Shown: positions 16,950 to 56,819 of the stretch, piece after piece | Layout: every line of letters starts with the position of its first letter | Numbering within the stretch: position 1 is the first letter of the stretch | IMG/VR virus record: IMGVR_UViG_3300035208_003217 | Reading direction: 5' to 3' (one strand) | Length of the DNA: 64,000 nt | Source: a virus | Notes under the pieces: model-generated | What the model was told of the DNA's origin: nothing | What the model saw: the letters and a program-made list of their open reading frames with translations, nothing else | The model's database searches: none | Translations under genes and position numbers: made by a program

Positions 16950-16953
16950 ATAT

Positions 16954-17286
16954 TTATCGTTTTTGTGTATAAAAATAACTAATTATATTCTTTATCTTAT
17001 GATTTTTTTGATCTTTTATATCTTGTTGATGAAGTCTTTTCAAAATATTTAAGTCTTGTTCTGATATCAATGCTCCTTGTTCAAGACATTTTGATTGACT
17101 TAATTCATCATAAAATTTTTCAGCGTTACCATCTTTAACAAATTCTGTTAAATTAATATTAAATGGTACATAATTTGGTTTATTTTTTATATTACATTCT
17201 ACAGATGAATTAGAATCTATGAATCTTGCTTGAGGTATTCTAGAAGTACTATCATAATCAAGTATATTATTATAAGTATAATTCAT
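16954..17286 (-). CDS. hypothetical protein
   Basis: 110 aa. Confidence 0.4.
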   Translation of the reverse strand: MNYTYNNILDYDSTSRIPQARFIDSNSSVECNIKNKPNYVPFNINLTEFVKDGNAEKFYDELSQSKCLEQGALISEQDLNILKRLHQQDIKDQKNHKIKNIISYFYTQKR

Positions 17287-17287
17287 A

Positions 17288-17674
17288 TTACTTCAAAACA
17301 TTAACTGTATTTTTTGATACAATCCCATCAACTAATTTGTTAAGAATATCTTTCATATCCTTAACATCAAAACCCATATTTTCAAATGCTTTTGTTAAAA
17401 CTTCAATTTCTTTGGCTTGAATACCATTTTTTTCTCTCATTTGTGATAATTCTTCTACTTTAACTTTTGTTGCTTCTTGAACCTTAACTTTTAATTCATT
17501 TTCAAGAATTCTCTTTTGAGATGCTAGATCTTCATCTTTTTGCTTTAATTTTCTTTCACAATCTTCTATAGTTTGATTTTTCTCTTTAAGATAATTCTCT
17601 GCTAATTTTTTATAATAGTCTCGATCGATTATTATTCTACTGAGCTTTTCTTTTACAATTTTTTTTTCAAACAT
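17288..17674 (-). CDS. hypothetical coiled-coil protein
   Basis: 128 aa, Lys/Glu-rich heptad-like sequence. Confidence 0.4.
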   Translation of the reverse strand: MFEKKIVKEKLSRIIIDRDYYKKLAENYLKEKNQTIEDCERKLKQKDEDLASQKRILENELKVKVQEATKVKVEELSQMREKNGIQAKEIEVLTKAFENMGFDVKDMKDILNKLVDGIVSKNTVNVLK

Positions 17675-17694
17675 ACATTTTATAATTAAATAAA

Positions 17695-18090
17695 TTAAAC
17701 TGTTATACTAGCTTCCGGTGATTCATAAAGTGTAACTTTAATGTTGTTAACTTTATTACCTATTTCTTTCAAAATTAGATTTTTTAAATGTAAGACCAAA
17801 TTTTCGGCAGTAGGATTAAATTCTGTAAGATAAAACAAAAGTCCTGATTCAAACATTACATCAATTAATTTTTCATTTTCTATTTTGTTCTGTATAATAG
17901 TAACATGGTCAAGTTTATTAATAATTGCTTTTAGTTTCTTGAAATCAATAATCATATCATTTTTTAATGAATCTGTTTCTATTTCAACTAATACATCCCA
18001 TCTGTGTCCATGAAGGTTATGACAAGGACCATCATAATTTTCTAACTTGTGAGCCGCATCAAAATGATGCTTTAACTTAAGATTGTACAT
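17695..18090 (-). CDS. queD: 6-carboxy-5,6,7,8-tetrahydropterin synthase QueD
   Basis: FDAAHKL...CHNLHGHRW matches the QueD/PTPS motif CxxxHGH. Confidence 0.8.
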   Translation of the reverse strand: MYNLKLKHHFDAAHKLENYDGPCHNLHGHRWDVLVEIETDSLKNDMIIDFKKLKAIINKLDHVTIIQNKIENEKLIDVMFESGLLFYLTEFNPTAENLVLHLKNLILKEIGNKVNNIKVTLYESPEASITV

Positions 18091-30667: not shown

Positions 30668-30731
30668 TACTCCTTCCTATCTTTAAAAATTCTAAACTAC
30701 ACTCCTTCCTATCTTTAAAAATTCTAAACTA
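30668..30731. repeat. tandem direct repeat, 2 copies of about 32 bp (ACTCCTTCCTATCTTTAAAAATTCTAAACTA)
   Basis: Two identical 31-nt units separated by 1 nt, in the intergenic region where transcription switches direction. Confidence 0.8.
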
Positions 30732-35132: not shown

Positions 35133-36704
35133 ATGTATAAAATGTTACTTTTTGGGCAAGATGCTCGTGAAAAAATTAAAAAAGGTGTTAATATTTTAGC
35201 TGATGCTGTTAGTTCAACATTAGGACCTAGAGGACAAAATGTTATCTTTGAAGAAAGTTCATTCCCAACTATAACGAAAGATGGTGTAACAGTAGCTCAG
35301 CAAGTTTTTCTTGAAGATAAATTTGAAAATATGGGCAATATGACTGCTCGTGAAGCAGCAGAAAATACTAATCGTGAAGCAGGAGATGGAACAACAACAA
35401 CCATCGTTTTATTAAGAGAAATATTTAATGAAGGATATAAAGCTATAACATCAGGAATGAATTCTGTTCTTCTTAAAAGAGGAATGGATGAAGGATTAAA
35501 ATTTGTTTTAGAGAATTTAGATAAACAAGCTAAAAAAATTACAACAGATAAAGAAAAAGAACAAGTAGCTATTATTTCAGCAAACAATGATATTGAAATG
35601 GGAAAAATGATAGCTTCGGTTATTAAAGAAGTTGGGCAAGATGGAGTTGTAACTGTTTCAAGTTCTAATAATTTAAAGACAGAAGTAGAGTACATTAAAG
35701 GAACAAAATTAAACAGTGGATATGAAAGTCATTTATTTATGAATGATCCAAGAAATCTTTCAGCAGTAATGAATGATCCAGAAATTATTATTACAACAGA
35801 AAGAATAACTATGTCTTCTCAGATTTCTCCTATTATTCAAAAATGTATAGCAGCCGGTAAAAAGAATATGGTTCTATTTGCTGATGTAATTGAAGGACAA
35901 GCAATGGTATTTTTGGTTCAGAATTATTTACAAGGAAAGTTTGCTTGTGTTCCTGTTAAAGTTCCATCTTATGGAGGATATCAAAGAGATTTAATTTATG
36001 ATCTAGCAACACTAACAGAGGCTACAGTATTAGGACAACAAGATGCTAAAATGATAGAAGATGCAGAACTTACAGATTTAGGAAATGCTAAAAATGTTAT
36101 AATAGGAAGAGATCAGACAATTATTTCAGGATCTGAAGGAGATATTAAGAATCGTGTTAAAGAAATTAAAGCATTACTTGAAGAGGAAAAAGATCTTTTT
36201 AAGAAGGAAAAATTAAGACAAAGATTAGGAAGACTAAATGGAAAAATTGCTAATATTAAAGTAGGAGGAGCATCAGATTCAGAACAATTAGAAATTCGTT
36301 ATCGTGTTGAAGATGCTGTTAATGCTACTCGCTCAGCAATTGAAGAAGGAATTGTAGAAGGAGGAGGAACTGCTTTATTAAGATGTTATCAGGCAATACA
36401 AAAAATAGAAGAAAAAGGAACCAAAGAAGAACTTGAAGGATTAAAAATAGTTATTGAAGCATTAAAAGCTCCGTTAAGAAAGATAGTTGATAATGGAGGT
36501 ATCACCGGAGATTCGGTCGTTGCTAAAGTCTTAGAAGGAAAGTTAGGATATAATGCTCTTACTAATGAATATGAAGATTTATTTAAAACAGGAATTATTG
36601 ACCCTAAAAAAGTTGTAAGAAATGAAATAATTAATGCAGTAGCAACAGCCGGTATTTTATTAACATCAGGATGTGCAATTGTTATTAAACCAGAAATAAA
36701 ATAA
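35133..36704 (+). CDS. groEL: chaperonin GroEL (Hsp60)
   Basis: N-terminus LLFGQDAREKIKKGVNILADAVSSTLGPRGQNV and ATP-site AGDGTTTTIVL (GDGTTT). 523 aa. Confidence 0.85.
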   Translation: MYKMLLFGQDAREKIKKGVNILADAVSSTLGPRGQNVIFEESSFPTITKDGVTVAQQVFLEDKFENMGNMTAREAAENTNREAGDGTTTTIVLLREIFNEGYKAITSGMNSVLLKRGMDEGLKFVLENLDKQAKKITTDKEKEQVAIISANNDIEMGKMIASVIKEVGQDGVVTVSSSNNLKTEVEYIKGTKLNSGYESHLFMNDPRNLSAVMNDPEIIITTERITMSSQISPIIQKCIAAGKKNMVLFADVIEGQAMVFLVQNYLQGKFACVPVKVPSYGGYQRDLIYDLATLTEATVLGQQDAKMIEDAELTDLGNAKNVIIGRDQTIISGSEGDIKNRVKEIKALLEEEKDLFKKEKLRQRLGRLNGKIANIKVGGASDSEQLEIRYRVEDAVNATRSAIEEGIVEGGGTALLRCYQAIQKIEEKGTKEELEGLKIVIEALKAPLRKIVDNGGITGDSVVAKVLEGKLGYNALTNEYEDLFKTGIIDPKKVVRNEIINAVATAGILLTSGCAIVIKPEIK

Positions 36705-42852: not shown

Positions 42853-43734
42853 ATGTTAATGGATAAACAATCAAAGATTACCGCAAAACGTGGTATGCCT
42901 ATTGATTTAACAAACATCGCAAAAAAAACTGTTACTAAAAATTCAGAAACTGTACAGTTATATTATTTTAATGGTACAACTTATACAATAGATGGTGGAC
43001 AAGTAGCTGGAACGGTTGTAGTTGGAAAAACTGCTTATGATCCAATTATTGGTCGTATTAATGGTAGTGTAGCATCTTATCAAGATTCCTCGTTATCATT
43101 TACATGTGCTGCTCTTACAACTGAAGTCGAATTAGAAGAAAATGCTTTTGAAGCGGCAGATTATTTAAGTCCTTCAGATAGAGCAATCTTTCTTACAAGA
43201 AATTTTGCTAATGGAGAATATTGTATTGATTATAAAAAAGGTATAATTTATGGAGTAAAAGCAACTACGGCAACTTCTTTAACATCAGTTCGTTATAGTA
43301 TTGCGGCAATTGTTACAATTGAATTTGCTGATGGACCTTCCACAAGTCCAAGTTCTTCACCTTCTTCTAGTAGATCAACTTCTATTTCAAGTTCACCATC
43401 AAGTTCTGTCTCACCATCTACCTCACCTTCAACAAGCCCTTCTTCTTCAGTATCTCCAAGTACCTCACCTTCAACATCTCCTTCTAGCAGTAAATCGACT
43501 TCACCTTCCTCTTCACCTTCTTCCTCTCCTAGCAGTTCTGAATCACCGTCAACAAGTCCTTCTAGTTCTGAATCAACATCTCCATCAACCTCTGAGTCTA
43601 CATCACTTTCCTCAAGTCCAAGTAGTTCTCCGTCTACATCACCTAGTTCTTCAGAATCCCCATCAACCAGTCCGTCATCTAGTCCAAGTAGTTCAGAATC
43701 TTCTTCTCCTTCAAGTTCTCCATCTGGAGCTTAA
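42853..43734 (+). CDS. virion-module protein with C-terminal Ser/Pro/Thr-rich low-complexity repeat tail (about 140 aa)
   Basis: A 150 aa globular N-terminal part, then PSTSPSSSPSSSRSTSISSSPSSSVSPSTSPSTSPSSS... running to the C-terminus. Confidence 0.6.
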   Translation: MLMDKQSKITAKRGMPIDLTNIAKKTVTKNSETVQLYYFNGTTYTIDGGQVAGTVVVGKTAYDPIIGRINGSVASYQDSSLSFTCAALTTEVELEENAFEAADYLSPSDRAIFLTRNFANGEYCIDYKKGIIYGVKATTATSLTSVRYSIAAIVTIEFADGPSTSPSSSPSSSRSTSISSSPSSSVSPSTSPSTSPSSSVSPSTSPSTSPSSSKSTSPSSSPSSSPSSSESPSTSPSSSESTSPSTSESTSLSSSPSSSPSTSPSSSESPSTSPSSSPSSSESSSPSSSPSGA

Positions 43735-43973: not shown

Positions 43974-44279
43974 ATGACCGAAGATCAAAATACAATTGCT
44001 AATCAAGTCCAAACTGAGAGTATAGTTAAAAAGATATTAACCTCGGAGGTTAAATATATTATTGGAATTGTTATTTTTCTAGTAGGAGTTGTTGCTCCAT
44101 ATTATGATATTAAGACTGAGATTGCCCTAATTAAACAAAATCATATAGCTCATATTGAGACAATGGAAAAACAGATTGAAACCAATTCTACTGATATAAA
44201 GAGTTTAACAGAGACGCAGGTTAAACTAATGACAGTTATTGCCGAAAATAGTGTAAGGTTAACAAACCTAGAAAAATAA
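43974..44279 (+). CDS. membrane-anchored coiled-coil protein
   Basis: One transmembrane helix (YIIGIVIFLVGVVAPYY), then a coiled coil. Confidence 0.35.
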   Translation: MTEDQNTIANQVQTESIVKKILTSEVKYIIGIVIFLVGVVAPYYDIKTEIALIKQNHIAHIETMEKQIETNSTDIKSLTETQVKLMTVIAENSVRLTNLEK

Positions 44280-44280
44280 T

Positions 44281-45222
44281 ATGAATTTTAACGACCGAAA
44301 ATTTGGTTTGATTGAAGGTAAGAAGATAACTGACTATATTGCTGGTTCAAGTTCGCCCATTGTTAGAAAGAAATTAACAGATGGTGATTGGATAAATTAT
44401 AAACCAGAACATGAACAACAATTTAATAGTGAGAATCTTTATGATACTTTAATGTGTGTTACCTTCGCAACTTTAGATGCTCTTGAAACATTGTTTATGT
44501 ATCATTTACATAATGGAAACGTTTCTAAAGAGGATGTTGTATGGTTAAAAGAAAAAGGATACTTTAAGAATGGATTTATTAATTTTAATGATAGATTTTC
44601 GGCTATTAATGGAGAAACAAGTATTCATGGAGCATATCAATTCGCAGTTATAGATGGCATTAGACATAAAGGTTGTATTCCTCAAGATATATTTCCAATG
44701 GCTAATAATTTTATAGATAATATTGATCCTAAATTTATTACCCAAGAAATGTATGGTTTAGGAAAAGAATTTGTTAAGAGATTTCCAATTTTATATGAAT
44801 GGGTAGATAATAAAGATATCCACGAATATTTACAGTATGCCCCTCTAACTGCTTCTGTGCGTTATGATAGTGGAGATAATATATTAGATCCAATAGGTAG
44901 TCCAAATCATAGGATAATGGTATATAAAGCTACAGACGAATTTATTGGAGTTAATGATAGTTATGAGGAATTTAAAAAATATAATCCAAGTAAAGTCTAT
45001 TCTTATATGGCATTTTATTTGGAAACAAAAAATGATATGATATTAAAAAAAGAGAAAGGTAGTTCAGCAATTTATTTAATTAATGAAGATAACAAAACAA
45101 AAACAATGATTGTTGATATGCCTACGCTTGATTCATTAGGAGGAATATTTGAAGAGGTAGATAGTTTACAAATGTATTCAGATAAAGGAACTCTTATCTG
45201 GACTGAAAGAATTATAAATTAA
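44281..45222 (+). CDS. hypothetical protein (possible Cys/His peptidase-like)
   Basis: 313 aa with a conserved-looking Cys (DTLMCVTFATLDALE) and a distal His (SPNHRIMVY). The call is weak. Confidence 0.3.
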   Translation: MNFNDRKFGLIEGKKITDYIAGSSSPIVRKKLTDGDWINYKPEHEQQFNSENLYDTLMCVTFATLDALETLFMYHLHNGNVSKEDVVWLKEKGYFKNGFINFNDRFSAINGETSIHGAYQFAVIDGIRHKGCIPQDIFPMANNFIDNIDPKFITQEMYGLGKEFVKRFPILYEWVDNKDIHEYLQYAPLTASVRYDSGDNILDPIGSPNHRIMVYKATDEFIGVNDSYEEFKKYNPSKVYSYMAFYLETKNDMILKKEKGSSAIYLINEDNKTKTMIVDMPTLDSLGGIFEEVDSLQMYSDKGTLIWTERIIN

Positions 45223-45223
45223 T

Positions 45224-46036
45224 ATGTTATCAATAATAATTCCAAGTTATAAAGATCCATATCTTCATAAAACAATAGATTCTCTTTTAGAAAATGCTGA
45301 AGGAGAAGTAGAAATAGTTGTTGTATTAGATGGATATCAGCCTACTATACCAATAAAAGAAGATAAAAGAATAAAAGTTATTCATTTAGGAAAAAATAGA
45401 GGAATGAGAGGAGCTATAAATGCTGGAGTATTAGTATCAAAAGGAGAATATATAATGAGAACTGATGAACATTGTTTATTTGGAAAAGGATATGATATTA
45501 TTCTTACAAAAGATATTGAAAATAATTGGATTGTTACTCCTAGACGTTATTTTTTAAATCCAGTAGATTGGAAAATAATGGATATTCCTCCTACAGATTA
45601 TGGAGACTTAAAGATACAAGGAACTGGTTCAGGAAGAAAATTTCATGGTCAAGAAAATAAAGAACTAGCAGAACAAAGAAAGAATATCATGATTGATGAA
45701 ACATTTGCTATGCAAGGTAGTTGTTGGATAATGAGACGATCTTGGTGGGATAAAGTTATTGGAGAACTTCAAATAGAAGGATATGGACCTCTCTATCAAG
45801 ATAGTCATGAAATGGTTTTTAAGACTTGGAAAGCAGGAGGCAAATTAATGGTTAATAAAAATACTTGGCACGCACATAAACATAGAAGCTTTAATAGAAC
45901 ACATAGCAATGGAACAAAAGAAAATCCGTCTAATAATGAAGCTTGTTTTGCTTATTCACTTAGTGTTTGGGAAGATTATTATAACGAATTAAAACAAAAT
46001 GGCAGATTTGACTATACTGTTCTTGACAAACAATAA
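45224..46036 (+). CDS. family 2 glycosyltransferase (GT-A)
   Basis: N-terminus LSIIIPSYKD...EIVVVLDG is typical of GT2 (IIP.YN then DD/DG). It is a paralog of the ORF at 49356..50321 (shared WHAHKHR / WYAHMFR region). Confidence 0.65.
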   Translation: MLSIIIPSYKDPYLHKTIDSLLENAEGEVEIVVVLDGYQPTIPIKEDKRIKVIHLGKNRGMRGAINAGVLVSKGEYIMRTDEHCLFGKGYDIILTKDIENNWIVTPRRYFLNPVDWKIMDIPPTDYGDLKIQGTGSGRKFHGQENKELAEQRKNIMIDETFAMQGSCWIMRRSWWDKVIGELQIEGYGPLYQDSHEMVFKTWKAGGKLMVNKNTWHAHKHRSFNRTHSNGTKENPSNNEACFAYSLSVWEDYYNELKQNGRFDYTVLDKQ

Positions 46037-46691
46037 GGTTCCTAAAAAATGGGCGGAATATCATTTTCAGAAATTAAAAGAAGCTGCAGGAGAATACCCT
46101 ATAATAACCATTTCAAGAATTCCAATGTCAGGAATAAATTTAATACAGACAGAATCAGAAAGTTCTTCGAATATTTATTGGCAATTATTAAGAGGTGCAA
46201 AACTTGCCGAGACTGAATATATTGCAGTAGCAGAGGATGATACACTTTATACTAAAGAACATTTTCATTCATTTAGACCTGATGGGGTATTTGCTTATAA
46301 TCTAAATCGTTGGACTTTATATACTTGGGGTGAACCTATTTATTCTTTAAAAAACTTTATAAGAACCAATGCAGTTTTAATTGCTCCTAGACAATTAGTT
46401 ATTGAAGCATTAGAGGAAAGATTTGCTAGATATCCACATGATATGAAAAATATTCCGTTAGGGATGTGTGGGGAGCTTGGATACTTTGAAAAGGAATTAG
46501 GAATAACATTAAGACGAGCAATTGAATTTAAAACAATAGAACCAGTTGTTCAATTCGACCACGATTATTTTACAGGGGATAATTCAGAGAAAGGATTAAA
46601 AAGAAGACATACAAAAATATTAGGAACCATAAGAGCTTATGATATTCCTGTATGGAGAAAAGCAAAAGATTTAGTAACAAAATTTATATGA
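45999..46691 (+). CDS. paralog A of a 3-member tandem family (putative nucleotide-sugar transferase-like)
   Basis: Shares AEDDTLY, TWGEP and LIAPR.L.IEALEERFA blocks with the next two ORFs. Confidence 0.45.
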   Translation: MADLTILFLTNNKVPKKWAEYHFQKLKEAAGEYPIITISRIPMSGINLIQTESESSSNIYWQLLRGAKLAETEYIAVAEDDTLYTKEHFHSFRPDGVFAYNLNRWTLYTWGEPIYSLKNFIRTNAVLIAPRQLVIEALEERFARYPHDMKNIPLGMCGELGYFEKELGITLRRAIEFKTIEPVVQFDHDYFTGDNSEKGLKRRHTKILGTIRAYDIPVWRKAKDLVTKFI

Positions 46692-46809
46692 TAGAAAATA
46701 TTAAAAAAAGAATTCCTTGGAATAAAGGTAAAAAAGGATTACAAATAGCCTGGAACAAAGGATTAAAAAGAAAAAGAATATTGGACAAATTATTTTAAAA
46801 TTAAAATGT

Positions 46810-47493
46810 ATGAAAATTAACGACATCACCGTTATTTATTTAACAGCAAGTTTAATTCCGGAAGAATTTGGAAAATTTCAAAGACAAACTTTAATAGATG
46901 CTATTGGAGATACTGCTTTAATTAGTGTATCAAGAAAACCTTTAGACTTTGGAATTAATATTATAGACGATGGGAAAAAGTGTACACACAATATATACGT
47001 CCAAATGTTACGAGCTGCTAAAATGGCTACTACAAAATATATAGCCATAGCGGAAGATGATACTTTATATCATGAAACACACTTTACATTTCATAGACCA
47101 GCAGATGATGTATTTGCTTACGACCAAAATAGATTAGCATTGTTTACTTGGGGTGAACCAATGTTTCACTGGAGAAATCGTCGAAGTAATTGTTCATTAA
47201 TTGCTCCTCGTGAACTTCTTATTGAAGCTCTCGAAGAACGATTTGCGAAATGGCCGAATGGAATTCCTGAAAATATTGTTGGAGAATTAGGAAGAGGAAT
47301 GGTTGAAAGAAATTTACATGTTATTGAACGTAAGTCAGAAGATGTATTTAATAAATTTTCCTTAATTCAGTTTAATCATGAAGCAGCATCAGAAAAAAGA
47401 CAAAGATTACATCGAAAATCATATGGTCCGATAAAAGCCTATGATATTCCAATCTGGGGCAAGGCTGGCGAATTAGTTAAAAAATATGTTTAA
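46810..47493 (+). CDS. paralog B of the tandem family
   Basis: AEDDTLY, TWGEP and LIAPRELLIEALEERFA. Confidence 0.45.
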   Translation: MKINDITVIYLTASLIPEEFGKFQRQTLIDAIGDTALISVSRKPLDFGINIIDDGKKCTHNIYVQMLRAAKMATTKYIAIAEDDTLYHETHFTFHRPADDVFAYDQNRLALFTWGEPMFHWRNRRSNCSLIAPRELLIEALEERFAKWPNGIPENIVGELGRGMVERNLHVIERKSEDVFNKFSLIQFNHEAASEKRQRLHRKSYGPIKAYDIPIWGKAGELVKKYV

Positions 47494-48145
47494 AGATTCA
47501 TATACTATCATCTATTATACCGGAAATCGTGAAAATTCTGAATTTGAAAAAAAGATAGTTGATAATTTAAAAGAACAAGCAGGTGATATACCAATTATAA
47601 GTGTCTCACAAAAACCAATGGATTTAGGAAAGAATATTTGTGTTGGTAATGTGGGATTTTCTTATTTAAACGAATGGAGACAGATATTAATTGGAGCTAA
47701 AGAAGCAACAACACCTTACATTATATTTGCTGAATCAGATTTTCTTTATCCTAAAGATTATTTTAAATTAATACCAAAAGGTTTAATGTATGTATATGAT
47801 AATATTTGGATTGTAATGGATAAAAAATATGGTGATTGGTTTTGGAGAAAGAAACAATCAGAAGGAGCACAAATTGTAGATAGAAAACTTTTAATAGAAA
47901 GATATACAGAATTTTTAGCAGGATATCCAATGTGGTGGGAAGGAGAAATAGTAATAGGTAAAAGAGGAAATAGTCCTTTATGTGGTGTTGCTTATGAATA
48001 TTTTACAGGAGACCCAGCAATTAGTTTCAAAACTGGAGATGGATTAAGAACAGTAACAAATGTTATTAAAAAAGATAAAAAAGAAAAACTTCCATTTTGG
48101 GGGTCTATAAAACAATTAAGACAAAAATATTATGAGGTTAACTAA
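47486..48145 (+). CDS. paralog C of the tandem family (more diverged)
   Basis: Collinear with paralogs A and B (AESDFLY). Confidence 0.4.
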   Translation: MFKDSYTIIYYTGNRENSEFEKKIVDNLKEQAGDIPIISVSQKPMDLGKNICVGNVGFSYLNEWRQILIGAKEATTPYIIFAESDFLYPKDYFKLIPKGLMYVYDNIWIVMDKKYGDWFWRKKQSEGAQIVDRKLLIERYTEFLAGYPMWWEGEIVIGKRGNSPLCGVAYEYFTGDPAISFKTGDGLRTVTNVIKKDKKEKLPFWGSIKQLRQKYYEVN

Positions 48146-48614
48146 AAATTGGAGTAGTCATATGGCTATGCTTATTAAAACAATAATGCTAACAGATAAA
48201 CCAGTACTGGAAATTGGTTCAGGATTATTTAGTACTCCTCTTATGCATTGGCTATGTAAGATGCGAGGTCTTAAATTAGTTACATATGAAAATATAGAAG
48301 AATATTATAAATTTGCTAAAGGATTTCAAAGTCCTAATCATCGAATTAAATTTGTCAAAGATTGGAATGAAATTGATTTAAAAACTCATTGGGGAGTTGT
48401 TTTAATAGATCATCATCCAAGTGAACAAAGAGGACTTGATGCTATTCGTTTAAAAGATAAGGCAGATTATTTAGTATTACATGATTCAGAAAAACCAGAA
48501 TTTTATAACTATGAACAAGCATACCCACATTTTAAATATAGATTTGATTGGATAGAGTGTAAACCTTGGACAACAGTACTTTCAAACTTTAAAGATTTAA
48601 CAAACTTAAAATAA
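48132..48614 (+). CDS. class I SAM-dependent methyltransferase-like protein
   Basis: Motif I VLEIGSGLFS (hh(D/E)hGxGxG). Confidence 0.5.
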   Translation: MRLTKNWSSHMAMLIKTIMLTDKPVLEIGSGLFSTPLMHWLCKMRGLKLVTYENIEEYYKFAKGFQSPNHRIKFVKDWNEIDLKTHWGVVLIDHHPSEQRGLDAIRLKDKADYLVLHDSEKPEFYNYEQAYPHFKYRFDWIECKPWTTVLSNFKDLTNLK

Positions 48615-48618
48615 ACGT

Positions 48619-49377
48619 ATGACAACAAAAATTTATGGATTAGGGTGGGTTGGTAAAGCTATGAAGACTCTTTTTCCGGAGTCATTAGTTCACGACCCAC
48701 AACAAGGATTATTTAGTGAAGAAAAATGTGATGTAGCATTTATCTGCGTTCCTACTCCATTAAAAGATGGAAAATTAGACACATCAATTGTAGAAAGTGT
48801 TATTAAAAATTGTGAAGAAGATTTAATAATTTGTCGTTCTACTGTGATGCCTGGAACTTGTGATAAGTTAGAAAAATTGGGAAAAAATATTGTCTTTCAA
48901 CCTGAATATTTAGGCGAAACAGTTAATCATCCAATGACAGATCAAAAAGCAAGACCATTTTTAATATTAGGAGGTAAGCCTGAAAACAGACGCAAGGTTA
49001 TAGAGCTTTATCAAAAATGCTATAACGCAAATATAACAATCAGACAGGTTAGCAATTACGAAGCAGAAATTATAAAGATGACAGAGAATCGGGCAATCGC
49101 ATTTAAAGTTGCTCAATGTCAAGAGTTATATGATGTATGTCAAGCTGCTGGTGTAGACTATTATACTATTCGCGATGCTGTCTATGGAGATGATCCTCGC
49201 TTTAACCTATGGTTTACATTTATATTTCCAGAAGCAAGAGGTTTTAATTCTAAATGTATTCCTAAAGATATTTATGGTTGGGCAAGTTGGGCGGAGTCAG
49301 TTGGTTGTATTCCTGAATTAACAAAAAAATTATTAGAAGTAAATGATAAATTAATATGCCAAAACTTAGTATCTTAA
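48619..49377 (+). CDS. UDP-glucose/GDP-mannose dehydrogenase family protein (short form)
   Basis: Rossmann GLGWVG, ICVPTP, STVMPGT and the catalytic-Cys motif GFNSKCIPKD (cf. GGSCFPKD). The usual C-terminal domain is absent. Confidence 0.6.
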   Translation: MTTKIYGLGWVGKAMKTLFPESLVHDPQQGLFSEEKCDVAFICVPTPLKDGKLDTSIVESVIKNCEEDLIICRSTVMPGTCDKLEKLGKNIVFQPEYLGETVNHPMTDQKARPFLILGGKPENRRKVIELYQKCYNANITIRQVSNYEAEIIKMTENRAIAFKVAQCQELYDVCQAAGVDYYTIRDAVYGDDPRFNLWFTFIFPEARGFNSKCIPKDIYGWASWAESVGCIPELTKKLLEVNDKLICQNLVS

Positions 49378-50321
49378 TACCATCAAGAAATGAAATGTTT
49401 CTTGGCAGAACAGTACAGGATATTCTTGAAAATATAGAAGACGATACTGAAATTATAGTTGGACTTGATGGATGTAAAGATAATTCAGAAATATTAAGTG
49501 ATCCACATGTTGTCGTAGTCAGAGTTGCTGAAGCTATCGGACAAAGAGCAATGACAAATTTATGTGCTAGATTATCAAAAGCAAAGTACCTAATGAAAGT
49601 TGATGCACATTGTTCATTTGATAAAGGATTTGATAGAAAGATGATAGAAAGAATGAAAGATAATTGGACAATGGTACCAACAATGAGAAATTTATGGGCA
49701 TATGATTGGAAATGTAATAATTGTGGTTGGAAAATGTATCAAGGACCTACTCCTCAAATTTGTCCAAGTTGTGATAAGAAAGGAAAGATAAGAAGAAAGA
49801 TGATGTGGATTGGAAAAATAAAACCACAAAGTAATTCTTACTGCTTTGATCAAGAACCACATTTTCAATATTTCAATGAATATACAAAAAGAGATGAATA
49901 TAAAAAGATGCTTGCTGATACTGGATTAACTGAAACAATGTCATTACAAGGTTCATGTTTTATGTTAACAAGAGAAAAGTATTGGGAATTAAATATCTGT
50001 GATGAATCATTTGGTAGTTGGGGAAGTCAAGGAATTGAAGTAGCTTGTAAAACTTGGTTATCAGGAGGAAAGGTTGTTGTTAATCACGATACTTGGTACG
50101 CTCATATGTTTAGGACTCAAGGAGGGGATTTTGGATTTCCTTATCCTCAATCTGGAACAAAAGTACAACAAGCAAAACAAACAGTAAGGGAATTGTTTTA
50201 TGATAATCGTTGGGAAGGTCAAGTTAGACCACTGTCGTGGTTAATCGAGAAATTTTGGCCAGTCCCAGGATGGGATGAAGATGCAAGACAGAAATTGCTG
50301 GCGTGGCCACTAAAGAGATAA
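49356..50321 (+). CDS. family 2 glycosyltransferase with inserted zinc ribbon
   Basis: LSILIPSRNE...IIVGLDG and an inserted CNNCGW...CPSCDKK zinc ribbon. Confidence 0.65.
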   Translation: MPKLSILIPSRNEMFLGRTVQDILENIEDDTEIIVGLDGCKDNSEILSDPHVVVVRVAEAIGQRAMTNLCARLSKAKYLMKVDAHCSFDKGFDRKMIERMKDNWTMVPTMRNLWAYDWKCNNCGWKMYQGPTPQICPSCDKKGKIRRKMMWIGKIKPQSNSYCFDQEPHFQYFNEYTKRDEYKKMLADTGLTETMSLQGSCFMLTREKYWELNICDESFGSWGSQGIEVACKTWLSGGKVVVNHDTWYAHMFRTQGGDFGFPYPQSGTKVQQAKQTVRELFYDNRWEGQVRPLSWLIEKFWPVPGWDEDARQKLLAWPLKR

Positions 50322-50336: not shown

Positions 50337-52856
50337 ATGGCTAATCAAAAATTAACAGAACTTTCAGAAGACGCAACACCGTTAGATACAGATATAACTT
50401 ATGGTGTAAAAGACCCAACTGGATCTCCGTCTTCTATAAAATGGGCTTGGTCTACTTTAAAAACCTTTTTAAAGACTTATTTTGATACGTTTTATCAAGC
50501 TATTGGTTCTTATGAAGTAACGACTAATAAAGAAACCTCCACCGCCTCTAAAGGAGGAGTATTAAGGAATATAGACGGAGCAGTAGGGGATGTGGCACAG
50601 ACTGGGACAGGTTGGATTGAAGATGAGAAGTATGGTTTTGGGTTAGTGCGAACAGCCACCGCCGTTTCTGCTGAATTTGATAGTGCCGTTACAAGAACTG
50701 GCAGGTTAACATTAAAATTATCTACAACAGATGCGACTGGTAATTTATTAGTAGCTACAATGGGGACAACAGGAGCTTCACTTGGAGCTACAGCTTCTAA
50801 ATATGGCATACCATTAAAACCATCTACTACATATAGACTATCTTGTTATGTAAAAACTTCTGCTGTTGGTTCTGTAACATTAGGAATACACGAACATAAT
50901 TCTACAGGCACAAGACTGGCTACTGGTTCATTTACTACGAGTGCTTTAACAGGAACAAATGACTGGGTTCTTTTAACTAAAACAGGAATTACAAACGCTT
51001 CCACCGCCTTTGCTAATTTAATATTAAATAATCCTGGAACAGGTGGAGCATCTGACGCTTGGTTTGATGTTAATTCAATGACCCTTGAAGAAGTAGTAAC
51101 CGACACCACCTTTACTGGTAAGGTAGCAGAAAAGATAAGACCAGTATTACAAGCTGTTACTTCAACTGATAACATTGACCAGTCTTTAGACCCAACAGGA
51201 GCTTATACTAATACCTATGCTCTTACAAACGCAGTAAATGAGGGGGCAACGCATATTCAGACTTTTACTCCGACTAAAAAATACACCACAAGAATAGGGG
51301 TTTGGGTTGTAGAAGCTGGAACTGGCGTAGATTGGACTTTAGTAGTTCATACCGCTGGAAACGTGGTTGTGGTTTCAAAAACTATTGCCGCTGCTTCTTT
51401 AGTAGAGGGTGCGATGAACTACTTTGATGTGCCAAATATCTGGGCTAGTGGTGCTTTACACTTTCATTTATACGCCTCAGCAACAACTGGAACTCCAACT
51501 TGTAAAGCTAACACCTCTAACGATTTAGAAACTGCTTCTTATATCCAGAACTACGCCAAAAAAACCGAGTCCTTTTCTCTTATTGCTAACGGAATAAAAA
51601 CTCAACTAAAAGCAGATAAAGACGGCTTACTTTCTAATGCTATTATTGATTTAGATAATGGGAAGTATAATTATTATAGGGTTGGTAATAATACTCTAGC
51701 GTATGCTGATATTTTAACCGATATTTACGAGGTTAATACTATTTATGCTTCTGACGGTCCAAACATTGGAAGTGCTGGTAGATATGTTACCTATAAAATA
51801 AACACAATTTTACCAATAAAAAAAGCCTCAATTAAAGCTGTTCTACACGGAGCTTCAACTAGATTTGTTGATATTTCAGTATCGGTAAATAATATTGATT
51901 GGGTGCTATTAAAAACACAAGAAACCGCAGCACATTTTTTTACTGAAAGTTTATTAACAAATATAGCAAATAAGGGAAATATTATTTATGTAAAATTGGC
52001 TTATAGTTCTGGCGGTGCTTCTTATGCCGAGGGATTAGTATTTGAAGCCGACCTTGATACCTCCTCTATTCCTCAAGGACTATTCTATCCTATCGGCTTA
52101 AATCAATTCGCAGAAACTTGGAAAGCAACAGGCACAGTTTTATCTTATGTTTATCGCCAAGCTAAATACACTAATGAATACGGAGTTGTAATGCCTGCTA
52201 TTGAATTAAATAGTTTGTCGAATGGTGCTGGAGCGGCTCTTGGTTACTTACCTCTTAAAATAGATAACTCACAAGAAACTACCCCAGCTATCACAATTCT
52301 TGCTTCTTCTGGCGTGGCTTCTGATACAGTTTTAGACGCTGACGGAGAATATGTCGCTTTATCAAGTGGAGCAACGGAAGGTTCAGTAAATTACCAAGTA
52401 ACGATTACTAAAAATACCCTTTACCTTTCTTCAAATGCCGAAAGTGTAGATAGCACCCAAGACCCCTCACATCAAGGCAACTTTATTATCGGAGTAAGAC
52501 AGCAAGGTTTAACTGACAGGGTTAAGGATGTTGGTAACGAAATAGCTGATATAAAACAAGGAGTGCTGGCAATGGTAAATAGTTCCCCTAAAGTTGGTTA
52601 TGACGCTGGAACGACAGACGCTTATGAGATTACTATTCCTAATTTCACAGGTTATTACGCTGGTATGTCAGTAATATTTAAGGCTAATACCGCTAATACG
52701 ACTGATGCTACTCTAAACATAAATGGTATGGGAGCTAAAGCAATTGTAAAGGGAGTTTCAACTGCTTTATCAACTAACGATATTCTAGCTTTAATGTGGT
52801 GTCAATGTGTTTATGACGGAACTGCTTTCGTGCTTATGAATCCGAGAGCATTGTAA
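50337..52856 (+). CDS. large virion protein (putative tail fibre / receptor-binding protein)
   Basis: 839 aa, Thr/Ala/Gly-rich, located in the tail module. Assigned by gene order only. Confidence 0.4.
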   Translation: MANQKLTELSEDATPLDTDITYGVKDPTGSPSSIKWAWSTLKTFLKTYFDTFYQAIGSYEVTTNKETSTASKGGVLRNIDGAVGDVAQTGTGWIEDEKYGFGLVRTATAVSAEFDSAVTRTGRLTLKLSTTDATGNLLVATMGTTGASLGATASKYGIPLKPSTTYRLSCYVKTSAVGSVTLGIHEHNSTGTRLATGSFTTSALTGTNDWVLLTKTGITNASTAFANLILNNPGTGGASDAWFDVNSMTLEEVVTDTTFTGKVAEKIRPVLQAVTSTDNIDQSLDPTGAYTNTYALTNAVNEGATHIQTFTPTKKYTTRIGVWVVEAGTGVDWTLVVHTAGNVVVVSKTIAAASLVEGAMNYFDVPNIWASGALHFHLYASATTGTPTCKANTSNDLETASYIQNYAKKTESFSLIANGIKTQLKADKDGLLSNAIIDLDNGKYNYYRVGNNTLAYADILTDIYEVNTIYASDGPNIGSAGRYVTYKINTILPIKKASIKAVLHGASTRFVDISVSVNNIDWVLLKTQETAAHFFTESLLTNIANKGNIIYVKLAYSSGGASYAEGLVFEADLDTSSIPQGLFYPIGLNQFAETWKATGTVLSYVYRQAKYTNEYGVVMPAIELNSLSNGAGAALGYLPLKIDNSQETTPAITILASSGVASDTVLDADGEYVALSSGATEGSVNYQVTITKNTLYLSSNAESVDSTQDPSHQGNFIIGVRQQGLTDRVKDVGNEIADIKQGVLAMVNSSPKVGYDAGTTDAYEITIPNFTGYYAGMSVIFKANTANTTDATLNINGMGAKAIVKGVSTALSTNDILALMWCQCVYDGTAFVLMNPRAL

Positions 52857-52953
52857 TATTAGAATTATTACTTATGTTAATCTCAACAAGTAGCTAAATA
52901 TTATACGATGAGCCGAGGGATGTTTGGAATAATTTAATTAATATATATAGATA

Positions 52954-54156
52954 ATGGCTAGTTATTTATTAAAAGAAGATGGGGATTATGTCCTAAAAGA
53001 AGACGGAGATCTGATATTATTAGATGGTGTCTTTTCTAGTCCATCTACTAGTATTAGTTCATCGCCAAGTAGAAGTGTATCAAGCTCACCTAGCACGTCT
53101 TTATCTTTAAGTCCGTCAAGAAGTATTAGTAGTTCAGTATCTCCTTCTACTTCTCCGAGTAGCAGTTTATCTTCTTCTCCTAGTACGTCGGAGTCAACCT
53201 CACCATCTTCATCCGTTAGTAGCTCTATTTCTCCAAGCACCTCACCAAGTTCATCAGAATCAACTAGTATTTCTGATAGTCCCTCCGTATCCGAATCAAC
53301 CTCCCCTAGCAGCTCTCCTTCTGTAAAACCATCTATATCGTCTAGCCCTAGTGAAAGCCTATCATTATCTCCTTCTTCTAGTGAATCAACATCTGAATCT
53401 ACATCAATATCTAGTTCAGTAAGTCCTTCTAGTTCAATTAGTGAATCTCCTTCTAGTTCAGAAAGTACTAGTATTTCTAGCTCTGTGTCTCCATCAACTT
53501 CAATAAGTAGTTCCCCTTCTTTATCTATATCGAGTTCGGTATCACCTTCTACATCGATAAGTAGTTCATTATCTACATCACCTAGTACTTCTATTAGTAC
53601 ATCACCTTCTACATCGATTTCAAGTTCTGAATCTACATCAATTTCCTCTTCAGTATCACCATCTACATCGATTAGTTCTAGTATTTCATTAAGTCCTTCT
53701 AGCAGTATTTCTACTTCCATTAGTAGTTCTTTAAGTTCTTCACCATCAACAAGTCCAAGTCCATCAATCTCTCCTAGTACTTCTCCGAGTAGTTCTATTA
53801 GCACTTCTCCTTCAAGATCTATATCATCGTCAATTAGTAGTTCGATATCAAGCTCAATTTCTTTATCACCTAGTCGATCAATTAGTTTATCTCCTAGTAG
53901 ATCTTTATCGAGTTCTCCGTCAAGTTCTATTTCTTCTTCTATTTCACATAGTCCATCTAGTTCTATTAGTAGTTCGCCTAGTACTAGTATTAGTAGTTCC
54001 GTCTCAGCAAGTCCTTCTCCGCCATCAGATTTTACTCCAAAAGTCTTAAACTTTATTCAAGATAAGAAACCTAAATCAATCTACTTTATTCAAGATAAGA
54101 AACCTAAATCAATCTACTTTATTACGGATAAAGTACCTAAGATATTTAAAAAATAA
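52954..54156 (+). CDS. protein composed mostly of (S-x-S-P-S) Ser/Pro/Thr repeats (about 330 aa) with duplicated LKEDGD N-terminus and FIQDKKPKSIY C-terminal repeats
   Basis: MASYLLKEDGDYVLKEDGDLILLDG, then SPSTSISSSPSRSVSSSPS..., ending FIQDKKPKSIYFIQDKKPKSIYFITDKVPKIFKK. Confidence 0.55.
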   Translation: MASYLLKEDGDYVLKEDGDLILLDGVFSSPSTSISSSPSRSVSSSPSTSLSLSPSRSISSSVSPSTSPSSSLSSSPSTSESTSPSSSVSSSISPSTSPSSSESTSISDSPSVSESTSPSSSPSVKPSISSSPSESLSLSPSSSESTSESTSISSSVSPSSSISESPSSSESTSISSSVSPSTSISSSPSLSISSSVSPSTSISSSLSTSPSTSISTSPSTSISSSESTSISSSVSPSTSISSSISLSPSSSISTSISSSLSSSPSTSPSPSISPSTSPSSSISTSPSRSISSSISSSISSSISLSPSRSISLSPSRSLSSSPSSSISSSISHSPSSSISSSPSTSISSSVSASPSPPSDFTPKVLNFIQDKKPKSIYFIQDKKPKSIYFITDKVPKIFKK

Positions 54157-54160
54157 CAAT

Positions 54161-55351
54161 ATGCCATCATATCTACAGACTAAACAAAACAAAATAAAAA
54201 TTGCTAACCCGCCATTAGAAGATGAAGCAAGAACATATCTAACAGCAGATTGTGCTATTGGAGCCACAACTCTTGCCACACTAGATAATGGAGGATTTAT
54301 TATAACAGGAACATCTGATTATTATATTATTATAGGTGAATATGGATCAGAAAAAGCTGAGATAGTATTAGTCGATGCTAACGGAGCAGGAACATCATCT
54401 ACTGGATTTACAGTATCTGCGACAAAATATTCACATGAAGCTTCAGATCCTATTACTTTTATAAGATTTAATCAAATTTTATTTTATGGAAAAATAGCAA
54501 CAGAAGGAACAAGAGTTCTTTTGTCGACAAAAGAAATAGATTGTTCACAATTATTTACGGATTACACATATGCTGGTGATACTTACAGTTTTTTTGATTC
54601 GGCATATTATAATAGTACAGATGATAAAATATCAGTTTATTCAGATGAAATAGATAATACTTCGTTTACTCGTCAATCAATAAAAAGAATTATAGAATCT
54701 GGTCTTAGAAAAGCATTAACAAAACTTGAAGATAATCCTGAAGCAGAATTAAATTGGGATGTAGCTATTGAAACAGTTCAAGATGGAGTAGACGAAATAG
54801 TTGCTAAAAAAAGACGCTGGCCATTTTTAAGAACAATAAATTCTAGTACATCAACAGTAGCATCTCAACAATATATTGATAAACCAGATGATTTATTATT
54901 ATTAGAATACATTAAAGTAAATTCTAGAAAACTTGACTTTATGAGTCAGACTGATTATAATAACTATACAGCAACAGGAGATACAGTTCCAACAGGACAA
55001 CCTACAAATTATACAATTAAAAATAATAAATTTTATTTATTTCCAACACCTGATGCGGTTTATACCATTATCTTTGAATACTATAAAACAATAGCAGAAA
55101 TTACATCAGATTTATCTACTGAAATTGACTTTCCTTTTATTCCTATTTTAATATATTATTGTGCAGCACAATTTGCTTATATTAGAGGAAATGACAAAAG
55201 AGGAGACAAAATGTATAATATGTTTCTTAAGATACTCGATGACCAGATTATTGAATATTCTGGTCCAGAGCAAATGGGGGATGCTGAATATGTAGAAAAA
55301 ACATCAACTTATAATAGCAATGATGATGCTATAGTTGTCGAATTAGAATAA
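54161..55351 (+). CDS. hypothetical structural protein
   Basis: 396 aa. Confidence 0.45.
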   Translation: MPSYLQTKQNKIKIANPPLEDEARTYLTADCAIGATTLATLDNGGFIITGTSDYYIIIGEYGSEKAEIVLVDANGAGTSSTGFTVSATKYSHEASDPITFIRFNQILFYGKIATEGTRVLLSTKEIDCSQLFTDYTYAGDTYSFFDSAYYNSTDDKISVYSDEIDNTSFTRQSIKRIIESGLRKALTKLEDNPEAELNWDVAIETVQDGVDEIVAKKRRWPFLRTINSSTSTVASQQYIDKPDDLLLLEYIKVNSRKLDFMSQTDYNNYTATGDTVPTGQPTNYTIKNNKFYLFPTPDAVYTIIFEYYKTIAEITSDLSTEIDFPFIPILIYYCAAQFAYIRGNDKRGDKMYNMFLKILDDQIIEYSGPEQMGDAEYVEKTSTYNSNDDAIVVELE

Positions 55352-55352
55352 T

Positions 55353-56819
55353 ATGGCTCAAACAGCAATAAGATATACTAATTTTGATGGACTCTTAAAT
55401 GTAGGAGTATCAGATTTTTTATTACAGGATAATGAATTAACAGCTTGTAAAAATTGTTGGATTTATAAAATTGGAAAATTACAAAAAGTTCCAGGATATT
55501 CTTTAGCTGTTAATAGTCAAGTTATTGATAGTAAAGATGTAAGTTATTTACATTATTATTATGACACAGCATCATCAACTAATTATTTATTAGCAACAGC
55601 AGATAACGGAACAGCATTAACACTTGAATATAGAACAACAGGTAATTTCGCAACTATCTCAGGAATAAGTACAAGTTGGGATTCATATGCTACTTCAATT
55701 CCGGCAATGACAAATTATCTTGGAAAAGCGTTCATCGTTGGTTATAAATCAGGAACAACATTTTTACCAAACGCTACTGTAAAAGCAACAACATTTTCAA
55801 TTGTAGATACTGATCTTACATCAATGCCTCAAGCAAAATATATAACTACTTATAGGGATTTACTTTATATTGGTTATTGTAAAGTTAGTTCAACTGTATA
55901 TCCTTCAAGAGTTTATTTTTCAGATGAACCAACAGCCGGTGCTATTGGGTGGACTGGAATTTTAACTAATTTTGTGGAATTTGGACAAGATGACGGAGAT
56001 GAAATAACTGGAATTGCTGAATGTGCTGATAGACTTATTGTATTTAAACATTTTTCAATGTGGAGATATGATGAATCAAATAAAGTTAGAATAGCTAGTG
56101 TTGGATGTGATAGCTTTCGTTCAATTGTTAATATTAATGGTGTTTTATACTGGACTAATCGTCAAGGTACTTGGAGATATTCTGGAGGAATGCCAGAATT
56201 GATATCAGCAAAAGCACAAGAATATTTTGATGCTGTTGATCAAACAACATTAGGAAATCAAATAGGAGCTTGTTATAATGAATCAGAATATAGAGTATTT
56301 TTAGGAACAATAACAGTAGGAGAAAATACTTATACAAATACTTGGTTTTGTTGGGATACAAATAGAGAAAAATGCTATACTAGATGTACTTATGATATAG
56401 CTAAATCAGCTTGTTCATATATTGAATCAGGCAAGAAACGTTGTTATTTTGGAAATGATGATGGATTTGTTATGAAATTTGCTATACCAATTGATAAAGT
56501 ATATTCAGATAACGGTAATGAAATTGATTCATTTTTTGATACAAAGGCAATGGATCATGGAGTTCCTGAAGATGTTAAATTTACAACCCATCTAACTATA
56601 TTTTCTAATTATGCTAATGGAATGAAGTGTTCTGTTCAAAAGGATAATGAAGTAGCATTTCGGGAAGCTAATATTTCAATATTAAAGAAAAATATAGAAC
56701 AAAGAGATATATCAGGATCAGCTAATCGATTTAGATATAAATTTTATGAAAAAGGATTAGGAAAGTCATGGGAATTTGAAGGTTTTGTGATTCAAACAGA
56801 AATTAAACAAGAACCATAA
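55353..56819 (+). CDS. hypothetical structural protein
   Basis: 488 aa. Confidence 0.45.
   Translation: MAQTAIRYTNFDGLLNVGVSDFLLQDNELTACKNCWIYKIGKLQKVPGYSLAVNSQVIDSKDVSYLHYYYDTASSTNYLLATADNGTALTLEYRTTGNFATISGISTSWDSYATSIPAMTNYLGKAFIVGYKSGTTFLPNATVKATTFSIVDTDLTSMPQAKYITTYRDLLYIGYCKVSSTVYPSRVYFSDEPTAGAIGWTGILTNFVEFGQDDGDEITGIAECADRLIVFKHFSMWRYDESNKVRIASVGCDSFRSIVNINGVLYWTNRQGTWRYSGGMPELISAKAQEYFDAVDQTTLGNQIGACYNESEYRVFLGTITVGENTYTNTWFCWDTNREKCYTRCTYDIAKSACSYIESGKKRCYFGNDDGFVMKFAIPIDKVYSDNGNEIDSFFDTKAMDHGVPEDVKFTTHLTIFSNYANGMKCSVQKDNEVAFREANISILKKNIEQRDISGSANRFRYKFYEKGLGKSWEFEGFVIQTEIKQEP

Follow-up and report, generated by a model that had tools for sequence, protein, structure and literature searches.

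A candidate mucin-like serine-array filament encoded next to the head-to-tail adaptor of an uncultured phage

Serine-rich repeat (SRR) adhesins contain hundreds of residues of O-glycosylated SX repeats (S(V/I/E) in Fap1, 'SX' as the family consensus), which are thought to form an extended stalk that holds the N-terminal adhesive region off the C-terminal anchor (PMC2952246). Mucin-type O-glycosylation of Ser/Thr-rich, mucin-like targets is started by polypeptide N-acetylgalactosaminyltransferases (ppGalNAc-Ts) (PMC3417536), and polyserine linkers separate functional modules of bacterial carbohydrate-active enzymes (PMC2386152). For phages, two papers that cite earlier work link mycobacteriophage glycosyltransferases (GTs) to the glycosylation of structural virion proteins (PMC11256854, PMC12582341), and in phage SU10 the long tail fibres dock by their N-termini on the adaptor dodecamer, on which residues 1-90 of gp12 were built (PMC9509320). 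Here we describe a Ser-rich gene located at 52954..54156 on the + strand of the IMG/VR record IMGVR_UViG_3300035208_003217, a stretch of 64 000 nucleotides from an uncultured phage (hereafter the window, to which all coordinates given without a locus name refer). The gene lies directly upstream of an SU10-type head-to-tail adaptor gene, and its product is here called the pre-adaptor protein. On balance, we favour the view that this protein is an accessory virion whisker of a short-tailed phage, with a C-terminal anchor, an O-glycosylated Ser array as spacer and a displayed N-terminus. On this view, the phage probably equips its particle with a 'mucin' filament of its own making, coated with sugars.

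The open reading frame (ORF) encodes 400 aa from an ATG start, exactly as in the initial annotation, and Ser accounts for 50.5% of its product, against a median of 5.8% among the window ORFs of at least 100 aa; the sole other outlier in this set is 42853..43734, with 32% Ser. Three parts can be distinguished. The N-terminal 26 aa (MASYLLKEDGDYVLKEDGDLILLDGV; 52954..53031, + strand) begin with MASYLLKEDGD and contain a duplicated LLxEDGD motif, encoded by two tandem copies of 24 nt and reading YLLKEDGD / YVLKEDGD; the duplication of LKEDGD noticed initially is therefore real. Then follows the array (aa 27-357; 53032..54024, + strand), which at 331 aa agrees with the earlier estimate of about 330 aa, makes up 83% of the protein and is 59.8% Ser. 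Its repeats had been described as SxSPS-type, and SxSPS does occur 35 times, but the basic pattern is rather an (S-x)n dipeptide, in which alternate residues are Ser in 94% of cases across about 331-348 aa. The x residues are mainly P (39), S (36), I (30), T (24), L (12), V (11) and E (9), and the array as a whole is 60% Ser, 7% Thr and 11-12% Pro (39/331); Pro shows a weak 8-residue periodicity and stands at -1, +1 or +3 of 100 of the 198 array serines. The C-terminal module (aa 358-400, SDFTPKVLNFIQDKKPKSIYFIQDKKPKSIYFITDKVPKIFKK; 54025..54153, + strand) ends in PKIFKK. The repeat recorded there as 2.5 copies of FIQDKKPKSIY is present, and can be refined to four in-register 11-residue units (FTPKVLNF / IQDKKPKSIYF / IQDKKPKSIYF / ITDKVPKIFKK) with the consensus Phi-x-Phi-x-x-D/N-K-K-P-K-Phi and P-K spacings of 11, 11 and 11. 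Two of the four units are an exact 33-nt duplication (54050..54123, + strand; 2.2 copies with 100% matches in Tandem Repeats Finder, and a 41-nt exact repeat).

Searches of the pre-adaptor protein against Pfam, PHROGs and NCBIfam assigned it to no family. The NCBIfam model 'ser_rich_anae_1' matched only the product of 42853..43734, far under its cutoff and by composition. A protein search returned 186 matches of compositional or linker type, Ser arrays being common as linkers, and the KPK C-terminus was absent from all of the top 120 of these 186. LPXTG proteins of L. reuteri were considered as relatives and rejected, since their termini differ and the Ser array alone is in common. The maximum 19-residue hydropathy of the ORF is 0.74. 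An AlphaFold2 (AF2) model, run on one sequence and hence of low confidence and weak support for disorder, gave a mean pLDDT of 37, with residues 1-360 at pLDDT 30-43 and devoid of secondary structure, and strands only in the C-terminal units (375-380 and 386-391, pLDDT 50-60). A scan for promoters and terminators found no excess over shuffled sequences.

A low-complexity sequence within a metagenome assembly raises the question of an artefact, whether as a collapsed or misassembled repeat or as the shadow of an opposite-strand gene: a long antisense ORF is present (52986..53804, 272 aa, Glu/Asp/Leu-rich), and the copy number of the exactly duplicated 33-nt unit could be misassembled at small k. 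Collapsed repeats, which the initial annotation had named as a possible refutation, are ruled out. Within the array DNA, exact repeats do not exceed 18 nt and every 21-mer is unique, and the invariant positions draw on all six Ser codons (TCT 53, AGT 45, TCA 40, TCG 11, TCC 8, AGC 6). An array of this kind, which is no tandem repeat at the DNA level, could not have arisen by assembly collapse, and its codon usage suggests that selection acts on the amino-acid pattern. The same gene is found in independent assemblies of other samples, with termini conserved in the + frame. It runs in the same direction as its neighbours and close to them: only 4 nt lie between its stop at 54156 and the ATG of the adaptor gene at 54161. 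The ends of the antisense ORF are not conserved, and this ORF is a compositional shadow. The chance that the ORF is an artefact is therefore negligible, and these sequence criteria mark a real gene under selection at the protein level.

The downstream neighbour, thought at first to be baseplate-like, is an SU10-type head-to-tail adaptor (54161..55351, + strand; Pfam PF24175, E=1.5e-18, residues 183-361; phrog_10775, tail protein) with an extra N-terminal region of about 180 aa; a profile of it against the PDB reached a phage adaptor at E=0.036, which is uninformative. About 40 related loci were fetched with the adaptor as handle. The 11-mer module recurs at the end of the gene next upstream of the adaptor in about 13 distinct and diverged relatives; it has 2-6 units there, P-K is spaced exactly 11, and 3-4 residues separate the final P-K from the stop. 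It is the sole conserved part of the gene, the body and N-terminus of which vary. S-x or SPSx arrays form the body in L001, L002, L011, L029, L038 and L040, and in L002 the array is preceded by a domain of about 385 aa made of eight 'VNTSTWAVTT…HFLNFW' repeats. L007 combines a ConA-like lectin (Laminin_G_3, E=1.9e-20) and about 240 aa of pure poly-Ser with the KPK module. Non-Ser repetitive bodies are joined to the module in L018, L027, L030 and L033-L035 (in a wider grouping, L030-L035), and in L031 almost nothing precedes it, the whole protein measuring 71 aa. The contig of P0111 has, once again, an array protein directly upstream of an SU10-type adaptor. The conserved C-terminus is thus most likely, on this comparative evidence, a virion anchor, and the adjacent adaptor is a candidate docking partner.

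The array itself is hypervariable. In L001, a 99%-identical relative, the flanks are colinear with the window, yet no alignment of the arrays is possible upstream of 53784; the array of L001 is at least 70 residues longer than that of the window, and L001 is without exactly one 33-nt C-terminal unit that the window has. In L011, the homologue of the gene downstream of the adaptor (5710..8628 in that locus) has two extra N-terminal domains attached through an SPSx linker, with the same polarity as in the pre-adaptor protein. The same locus contains a tyrosine recombinase gene (L011 512..1330) between a fragment of an array gene (33..506) and fibre genes, an arrangement that could represent a fibre-switching or insertion event. 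The N-terminal motif is also found elsewhere. LLxE(D/N)GD is N-terminal in the array proteins P0032, P0050, P0059, P0086, P0095, L077 and L100, and in L034 and L035 at the pre-adaptor locus, both of which are without arrays; two or three internal copies of LLxE(D/N/S)G with S-x arrays on both sides occur in L051 15466..18135, L074 5219..8017 and L100 11680..14568. To judge from its placement, the motif behaves as a small independent module, in a beads-on-string manner.

The initial annotation had proposed that the pre-adaptor protein is an extended flexible tether or a candidate glycosylation substrate. The tether gains support from the layout of the relatives (variable N-domain, Ser-rich spacer, conserved 11-mer C-module) and from the lack of AF2 structure over residues 1-360, and the glycosylation substrate from a pair of ppGalNAc-T-like enzymes encoded in a nearby cassette and from the tight co-occurrence of such GTs with S-x arrays, both described below. 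The two readings are compatible with each other.

The enzymes of this pair, GT2a (45224..46036, + strand; Pfam PF00535 and profile matches) and GT2b (49356..50321, + strand; Pfam PF00535, PDB and profile matches), are paralogues with 32% identity and like motifs, encoded 3-8 kb upstream of the pre-adaptor gene. When GT2b was compared with the PDB, ppGalNAc-Ts were all but one of the 16 matches at E<=0.01 (best E=1.3e-7). A profile built from GT2a, GT2b and their L002 orthologues (4 sequences) aligns with the ppGalNAc-T catalytic domain from end to end (6s22, E=2.6e-10, profile 3-252 against chain 186-448), and 14 of its 19 significant PDB matches are ppGalNAc-Ts; the match of the enzymes to GalT1 (5hea) spans only the generic N-terminal 100 residues. 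The DxH metal-binding motif (DAHC/DEHC; D83, H85, C86) is invariant in the four sequences and aligns to DAHC of 6s22, and so are the residues E228, K232, W234, G237, G238, H250 and R253 of the Gal/GalNAc-T motif (E..R/K.W..GG....H..R), which are aligned in the profile match. We take these two motifs to be the defining marks of the ppGalNAc-T family. GT2a and GT2b begin at the first GT-A strand, with no transmembrane segment or signal peptide and a maximum hydropathy below 1.0, and are predicted to be soluble, which would suit a cytoplasmic modification of virion proteins; by its sequence features, GT2b is a candidate initiating O-glycosyltransferase. It also carries an insert (49707..49796, aa 118-147) of the CxxC…CxxC rubredoxin/Zn-ribbon type (Pfam RUBY_RBDX, E=0.0019), which is missing in GT2a and kept in the relatives L002, L157, L159 and L161. 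The GT family comprises more than 5,300 protein clusters, almost all unnamed.

Relatives of GT2b number 228 in IMG/VR, and co-occurrence with strictly alternating S-x arrays of at least 50 aa was scored on the best 80 loci (56-82% identity). At least one array was found in 67 of these 80; if only the 54 loci in which 3 kb or more follow the GT are counted, the figure is 51. The negatives are mostly loci with ends missing. All of the 133 array segments are on the GT strand, and the array ORF starts less than 1 kb from the GT stop in 39 loci and less than 100 nt from it in 17. Of the capsid relatives for which 6 kb or more of downstream sequence was available, nine had both GT and array, eleven had neither, and none had only the one or the other (Fisher p=6e-6, ignoring, like the other GT/array statistics, shared ancestry); crude de-duplication leaves about 8 against 8, for which p is of the order of 1e-4 by estimate rather than by computation. 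A GT-bearing 76% relative keeps the arrays in its homologues of both window array proteins, that is, the pre-adaptor protein and the product of 42853..43734. The homologue of the latter in L012, which has the GT cassette, bears the array, and those in the GT-less L004 (3801..4940), L128 and L151 have no S-x tail or another C-terminal domain. In the reverse test, in which array proteins were picked without regard to GTs, relatives of GT2a/GT2b were directly upstream in three of five informative contigs (L157, L159 and L161; 44-64% identity, same motifs); in the remaining two, L156 and the contig of P0111, none was seen within 10 kb. In summary, the GT is nearly always accompanied by arrays, but arrays are not always accompanied by a nearby GT. 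Past the tail genes of the siphovirus-like L156, one of the array-bearing loci, lie genes for a radical-SAM/B12-binding enzyme and a pair of methyltransferases (15343..17977), which may represent a different modification system.

As regards expression, virion packaging, docking partner, glycosylation and biological role, we infer the following scheme from the sequences. The pre-adaptor protein would be made late in infection, and the serines of its array would be O-glycosylated in the host cytoplasm by the soluble ppGalNAc-T-like GTs together with other cassette enzymes, turning the array into a stiff, hydrated bottle-brush comparable with a mucin domain or the stalk of an SRR adhesin. Stretched, the array could reach about 80-120 nm (from 0.25-0.36 nm per residue). 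The 11-mer module would anchor the protein at the neck or tail near the adaptor. In the relatives, the same scaffold would project lectin-like or repeat-built N-terminal heads, and in the window phage the head would be reduced to the duplicated LLxEDGD motif; therefore, either the glycan brush itself would be the functional surface, serving adhesion to the host envelope or matrix or else shielding, or the motif would dock another component.

Several observations weigh against this scheme. The pre-adaptor gene is missing in the L004 lineage (50% adaptor identity) and in L023 (79%), and a small KPK ORF hidden in the GT-less L004 lineage was looked for and not found; given its absence from close relatives, the gene must be accessory and dispensable. 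Its conserved end is C-terminal, whereas the fibres of T7 and SU10 dock by their N-termini. Pfam finds no Ricin_B_lectin domain in GT2a or GT2b. Moreover, ppGalNAc-Ts generally prefer Thr, and in the array Ser (60%) far outweighs Thr (7%). The shared ancestry that the statistics ignore also counts here, as does the lack of any GT2 within +-10 kb of the arrays in L156 and in the contig of P0111, and of any GT in the 16.6 kb examined of the 40-kb contig of L011, which has four arrays.

The missing GTs of these three contigs also favour a rival reading, in which the array is an unmodified flexible Ser linker and the GT cassette has another purpose. Such domain-separating polyserine linkers are known in Saccharophagus (PMC2386152), and in L007 pure poly-Ser indeed stands between a lectin and the same C-terminal module. 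The 331 aa of the window array, however, have little to link, namely the 26-aa motif and the 43-aa repeat module; strict alternation with I, L, V or P at x would presumably be aggregation-prone if left bare; and the association of GT and array is very tight in presence, strand and adjacency. We therefore regard a bare linker as doubtful, although it is the strongest of the competing explanations. It is considerably less likely that the array folds as a regular fibrous shaft (silk-like beta, super-helical or trimeric), with or without glycans. Short perfect repeats tend to form extended fibres, the SX repeats of Fap1 have been modelled as a super-helix (PMC2952246), the non-Ser members of the family have the repetitive bodies typical of shafts, and the 8-residue periodicity of Pro points in the same direction. 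Against a shaft speak the Pro content, the free change of array length and sequence between 99%-related phages and, as weak evidence from a single-sequence run, the absence of structure in the AF2 model.

The other way of separating the enzymes from the array is to suppose that the cassette modifies a non-virion target, whether polysaccharide of the host envelope (the case in seroconversion) or the DNA of the phage, and that its linkage with the array reflects a shared late/structural module. The only PHROG match of the cassette GTs, a weak generic one of GT2b (E=8e-4), is indeed to GtrB-like O-antigen conversion enzymes, relatives carry the JGI label 'glycosyltransferase involved in cell wall biosynthesis', and the N-terminal GT-A halves of the enzymes resemble many polysaccharide GT2s. 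The full-length similarity, though, is specifically to polypeptide GalNAc-transferases and includes both of their motifs; the enzymes are soluble, with no membrane segment, unlike those of the GtrB type; and the perfect presence-absence match of GT and array among the capsid relatives is hard to explain by position alone. We rate a non-virion target as slightly less probable even than the fibrous shaft, and the O-glycosylated whisker anchored by its C-terminus continues to be the reading that we prefer.

In the cassette region, the only ORFs of 44281..50321 that Pfam assigns are those of GT2 (PF00535) enzymes and of a sugar dehydrogenase. The latter is a compact 252-aa nucleotide-sugar dehydrogenase (48619..49377, + strand; TIGR03026, E=6.6e-32; Pfam UDPG_MGDP_dh; phrog_9148) and is the most conserved cassette gene, with 81-88% identity in the relatives; its C-terminal UDP-binding domain has no Pfam match, and its N-terminal region is shorter than the profile. 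Three paralogous proteins of 219-230 aa, recognized by alignment and sharing a DxD-like AEDD/AESD motif, are encoded at 45999..46691, 46810..47493 and 47486..48145 (all on the + strand). They had no Pfam, PHROG or NCBIfam match, and a PDB search of one of them was uninformative. Its AF2 model was of moderate quality (pTM 0.59), and the top Foldseek matches were almost all GT-A folds, weak and not significant (E>=7e-3). In L157 (153..1787), L159 (8215..9807) and L161 (6695..8515), a domain of this kind is fused C-terminally to the ppGalNAc-T-like domain, and this fusion in three phage loci suggests that the AEDD paralogues act in the pathway of the ppGalNAc-T-like enzyme; judging from the model, they are probable further GT-A glycosyltransferases. 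A methyltransferase-like ORF (48132..48614, + strand) was recognized by eye from its 'VLEIGSG' motif only and has no family match.

The window has a GC content of about 29% and encodes GroEL, a portal protein, a major head protein and 13 tRNAs. A megablast search of 50337..56819 against deposited phages and a tblastn search of the adaptor against the phage collection gave no match, and the nearest deposited relatives of the capsid protein are actinophage capsids with only about 25% identity. In view of this lack of close deposited matches, there is no cultured relative to rely on. After the head genes, the order is 42853..43734, two probable lysis genes, the glycosylation cassette 45224..50321, a gene for an 839-aa protein, the pre-adaptor gene and the adaptor gene. 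The 839-aa protein (50337..52856, + strand) is the upstream neighbour that the initial annotation had called fibre-like, which holds by composition only: no significant family or PDB match was found, nor any homologue among the fetched relatives. Its gene and the pre-adaptor gene are in different frames and 97 nt apart, and that the two are split halves of one fibre gene is a speculation. Downstream of the adaptor, the gene 55353..56819 is 'nozzle-like' by synteny only, a PDB sequence search of its product having been uninformative. The phage is probably short-tailed, of the SU10/T7-like type.

The second array protein (42853..43734, + strand) consists of a globular N-domain of 160 aa, which is conserved, and a C-terminal S-x array of 133 aa (43333..43731, 62% Ser). 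This array has a free C-terminus, so that its polarity is opposite to that of the pre-adaptor protein. To judge from the position of its gene, 2.5 kb downstream of the capsid gene, the protein may decorate the head or form a head fibre. The region 43974..45222, which separates the head genes from the GT cassette, encodes a small membrane protein (maximum hydropathy 2.04) and then a 313-aa protein; these are the probable holin and endolysin, the endolysin being proposed by analogy with a 338-aa ORF of L159 that shows weak Peptidase_C1 and PG_binding_1 matches.

A few further features of the window are worth recording. There is a nine-tRNA cluster at 9403..10043 and 9628..9717, tRNA-Ser(UGA) included; the two array proteins together need about 300 Ser codons, and TCN codons are 63% of the Ser codons of the pre-adaptor gene. 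A GroEL-type chaperonin gene (35133..36704; phrog_5725, E=1e-131) lies just upstream of the portal gene. An exact tandem repeat of two 32-nt copies (30669..30731) is located in the intergenic zone where divergent gene blocks meet, with a GC-skew switch at about 28-31 kb, and this zone may be a replication origin or a regulatory region. As for the host, the organism names attached to close GT2b relatives (P0140, P0155, P0239) are only those of metagenome-assembled genome bins of the candidate phyla radiation (CPR)/Patescibacteria (WWE3, Levybacteria, Curtissbacteria), a possible host clue for this phage group unless phage contigs were mis-binned.

Taken together, the pre-adaptor protein appears to be an ordinary-looking member of a larger and seemingly undescribed pattern, the mucin-type glycosylation of Ser-x fibre arrays by phages; in the literature that we searched, neither phage SX arrays nor phage ppGalNAc-T-like enzymes had been described, which is not a proof of absence. 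More broadly, and with a little more doubt than conviction, we propose that many uncultured phages run their own mucin-type O-glycosylation, with a ppGalNAc-T-like family decorating (Ser-x)n/SPSx virion arrays as 'viral mucins'. The arrays would be shafts or linkers of fibres, head decorations and tail proteins, and the GT would often be fused or paired with a second GT-A enzyme and a compact sugar dehydrogenase; the 400-aa protein of the window would be the minimal form, anchor plus brush, and the hosts may be CPR/Patescibacteria. If this were true, an enzyme family regarded as eukaryotic would have its counterpart in prokaryotic viruses, and a large, unannotated group of environmental phages would make heavily O-glycosylated, mucin-like virion filaments with enzymes akin to the starters of animal mucins. 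Virion glycosylation would be widened from a few actinophages to a broad genomic signature of GT and S-x arrays, and hundreds of 'hypothetical' Ser-rich virome ORFs would be explained. The proposal would also be relevant to the ways in which phages attach to or evade host envelopes, biofilm matrices and immune systems, and the GT with its array would be a testable enzyme-substrate pair with which glycosylated phage particles or bacterial O-glycoproteins could be engineered; the 11-residue KPK module, for its part, may be a portable virion-docking tag.

Among the described systems, the SRR adhesins (Fap1, GspB, SraP, PsrP) are the closest analogue. The pre-adaptor protein has a like SX dipeptide pattern, and its relatives have a like layout of N-terminal head, Ser stalk and C-terminal anchor. 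It is not, however, a member of that family: there is no LP.TG motif, the C-terminus being the KPK 11-mer repeat instead of LPXTG, no signal peptide and no KxYKxGKxW export motif; the GtfA/GtfB pair is not among the cassette ORFs, the GTs of which are of the GT-A/GT2, ppGalNAc-T-like type; and the protein, a phage product, is not exported but assembled in the cytoplasm and, unlike Fap1, is Pro-rich (SPS). With the mucin-type ppGalNAc-Ts (CAZy GT27), GT2a and GT2b share the DxH and Gal/GalNAc-T motifs and an alignment that spans the entire catalytic domain, and their putative acceptors are Ser/Pro-rich repeats, just as mucins have Ser/Thr/Pro-rich tandem repeats. The animal enzymes, in contrast, have a ricin lectin domain and a Golgi membrane anchor, whereas the phage GTs are soluble and have neither; GT2b has its Zn-ribbon insert, the acceptor is almost all Ser, and sequence identity is low (best E about 1e-10). 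Virion glycosylation in mycobacteriophages is reportedly the subject of Freeman et al. 2023, Cell Host Microbe 31:1216. The mycobacteriophages are high-GC siphoviruses; here the acceptor is a dedicated SX array of 100-1400 aa and the window GTs have no PHROG family beyond the one generic match.

The polyserine linkers of carbohydrate-active enzymes follow the same design as the lectin, poly-Ser and anchor of L007, and the array of L002 also joins two modules; such linkers are, however, short and found in secreted enzymes, while the array of the window dominates its protein, is strictly alternating and is linked to a dedicated GT family. The tail fibres of T7 and SU10 share with the pre-adaptor protein a gene position next to the adaptor, repetitive bodies and variable distal domains, without any sequence similarity by Pfam or PHROG; T7 gp17 and SU10 gp12 have a conserved N-terminal docking domain, whereas in the family described here the N-terminus is variable or absent. 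The pre-adaptor protein is encoded next to the adaptor and ends in a module of 11-spaced P-K units, and these are the two features by which we define the family to which it belongs, 'Pre-adaptor KPK'.

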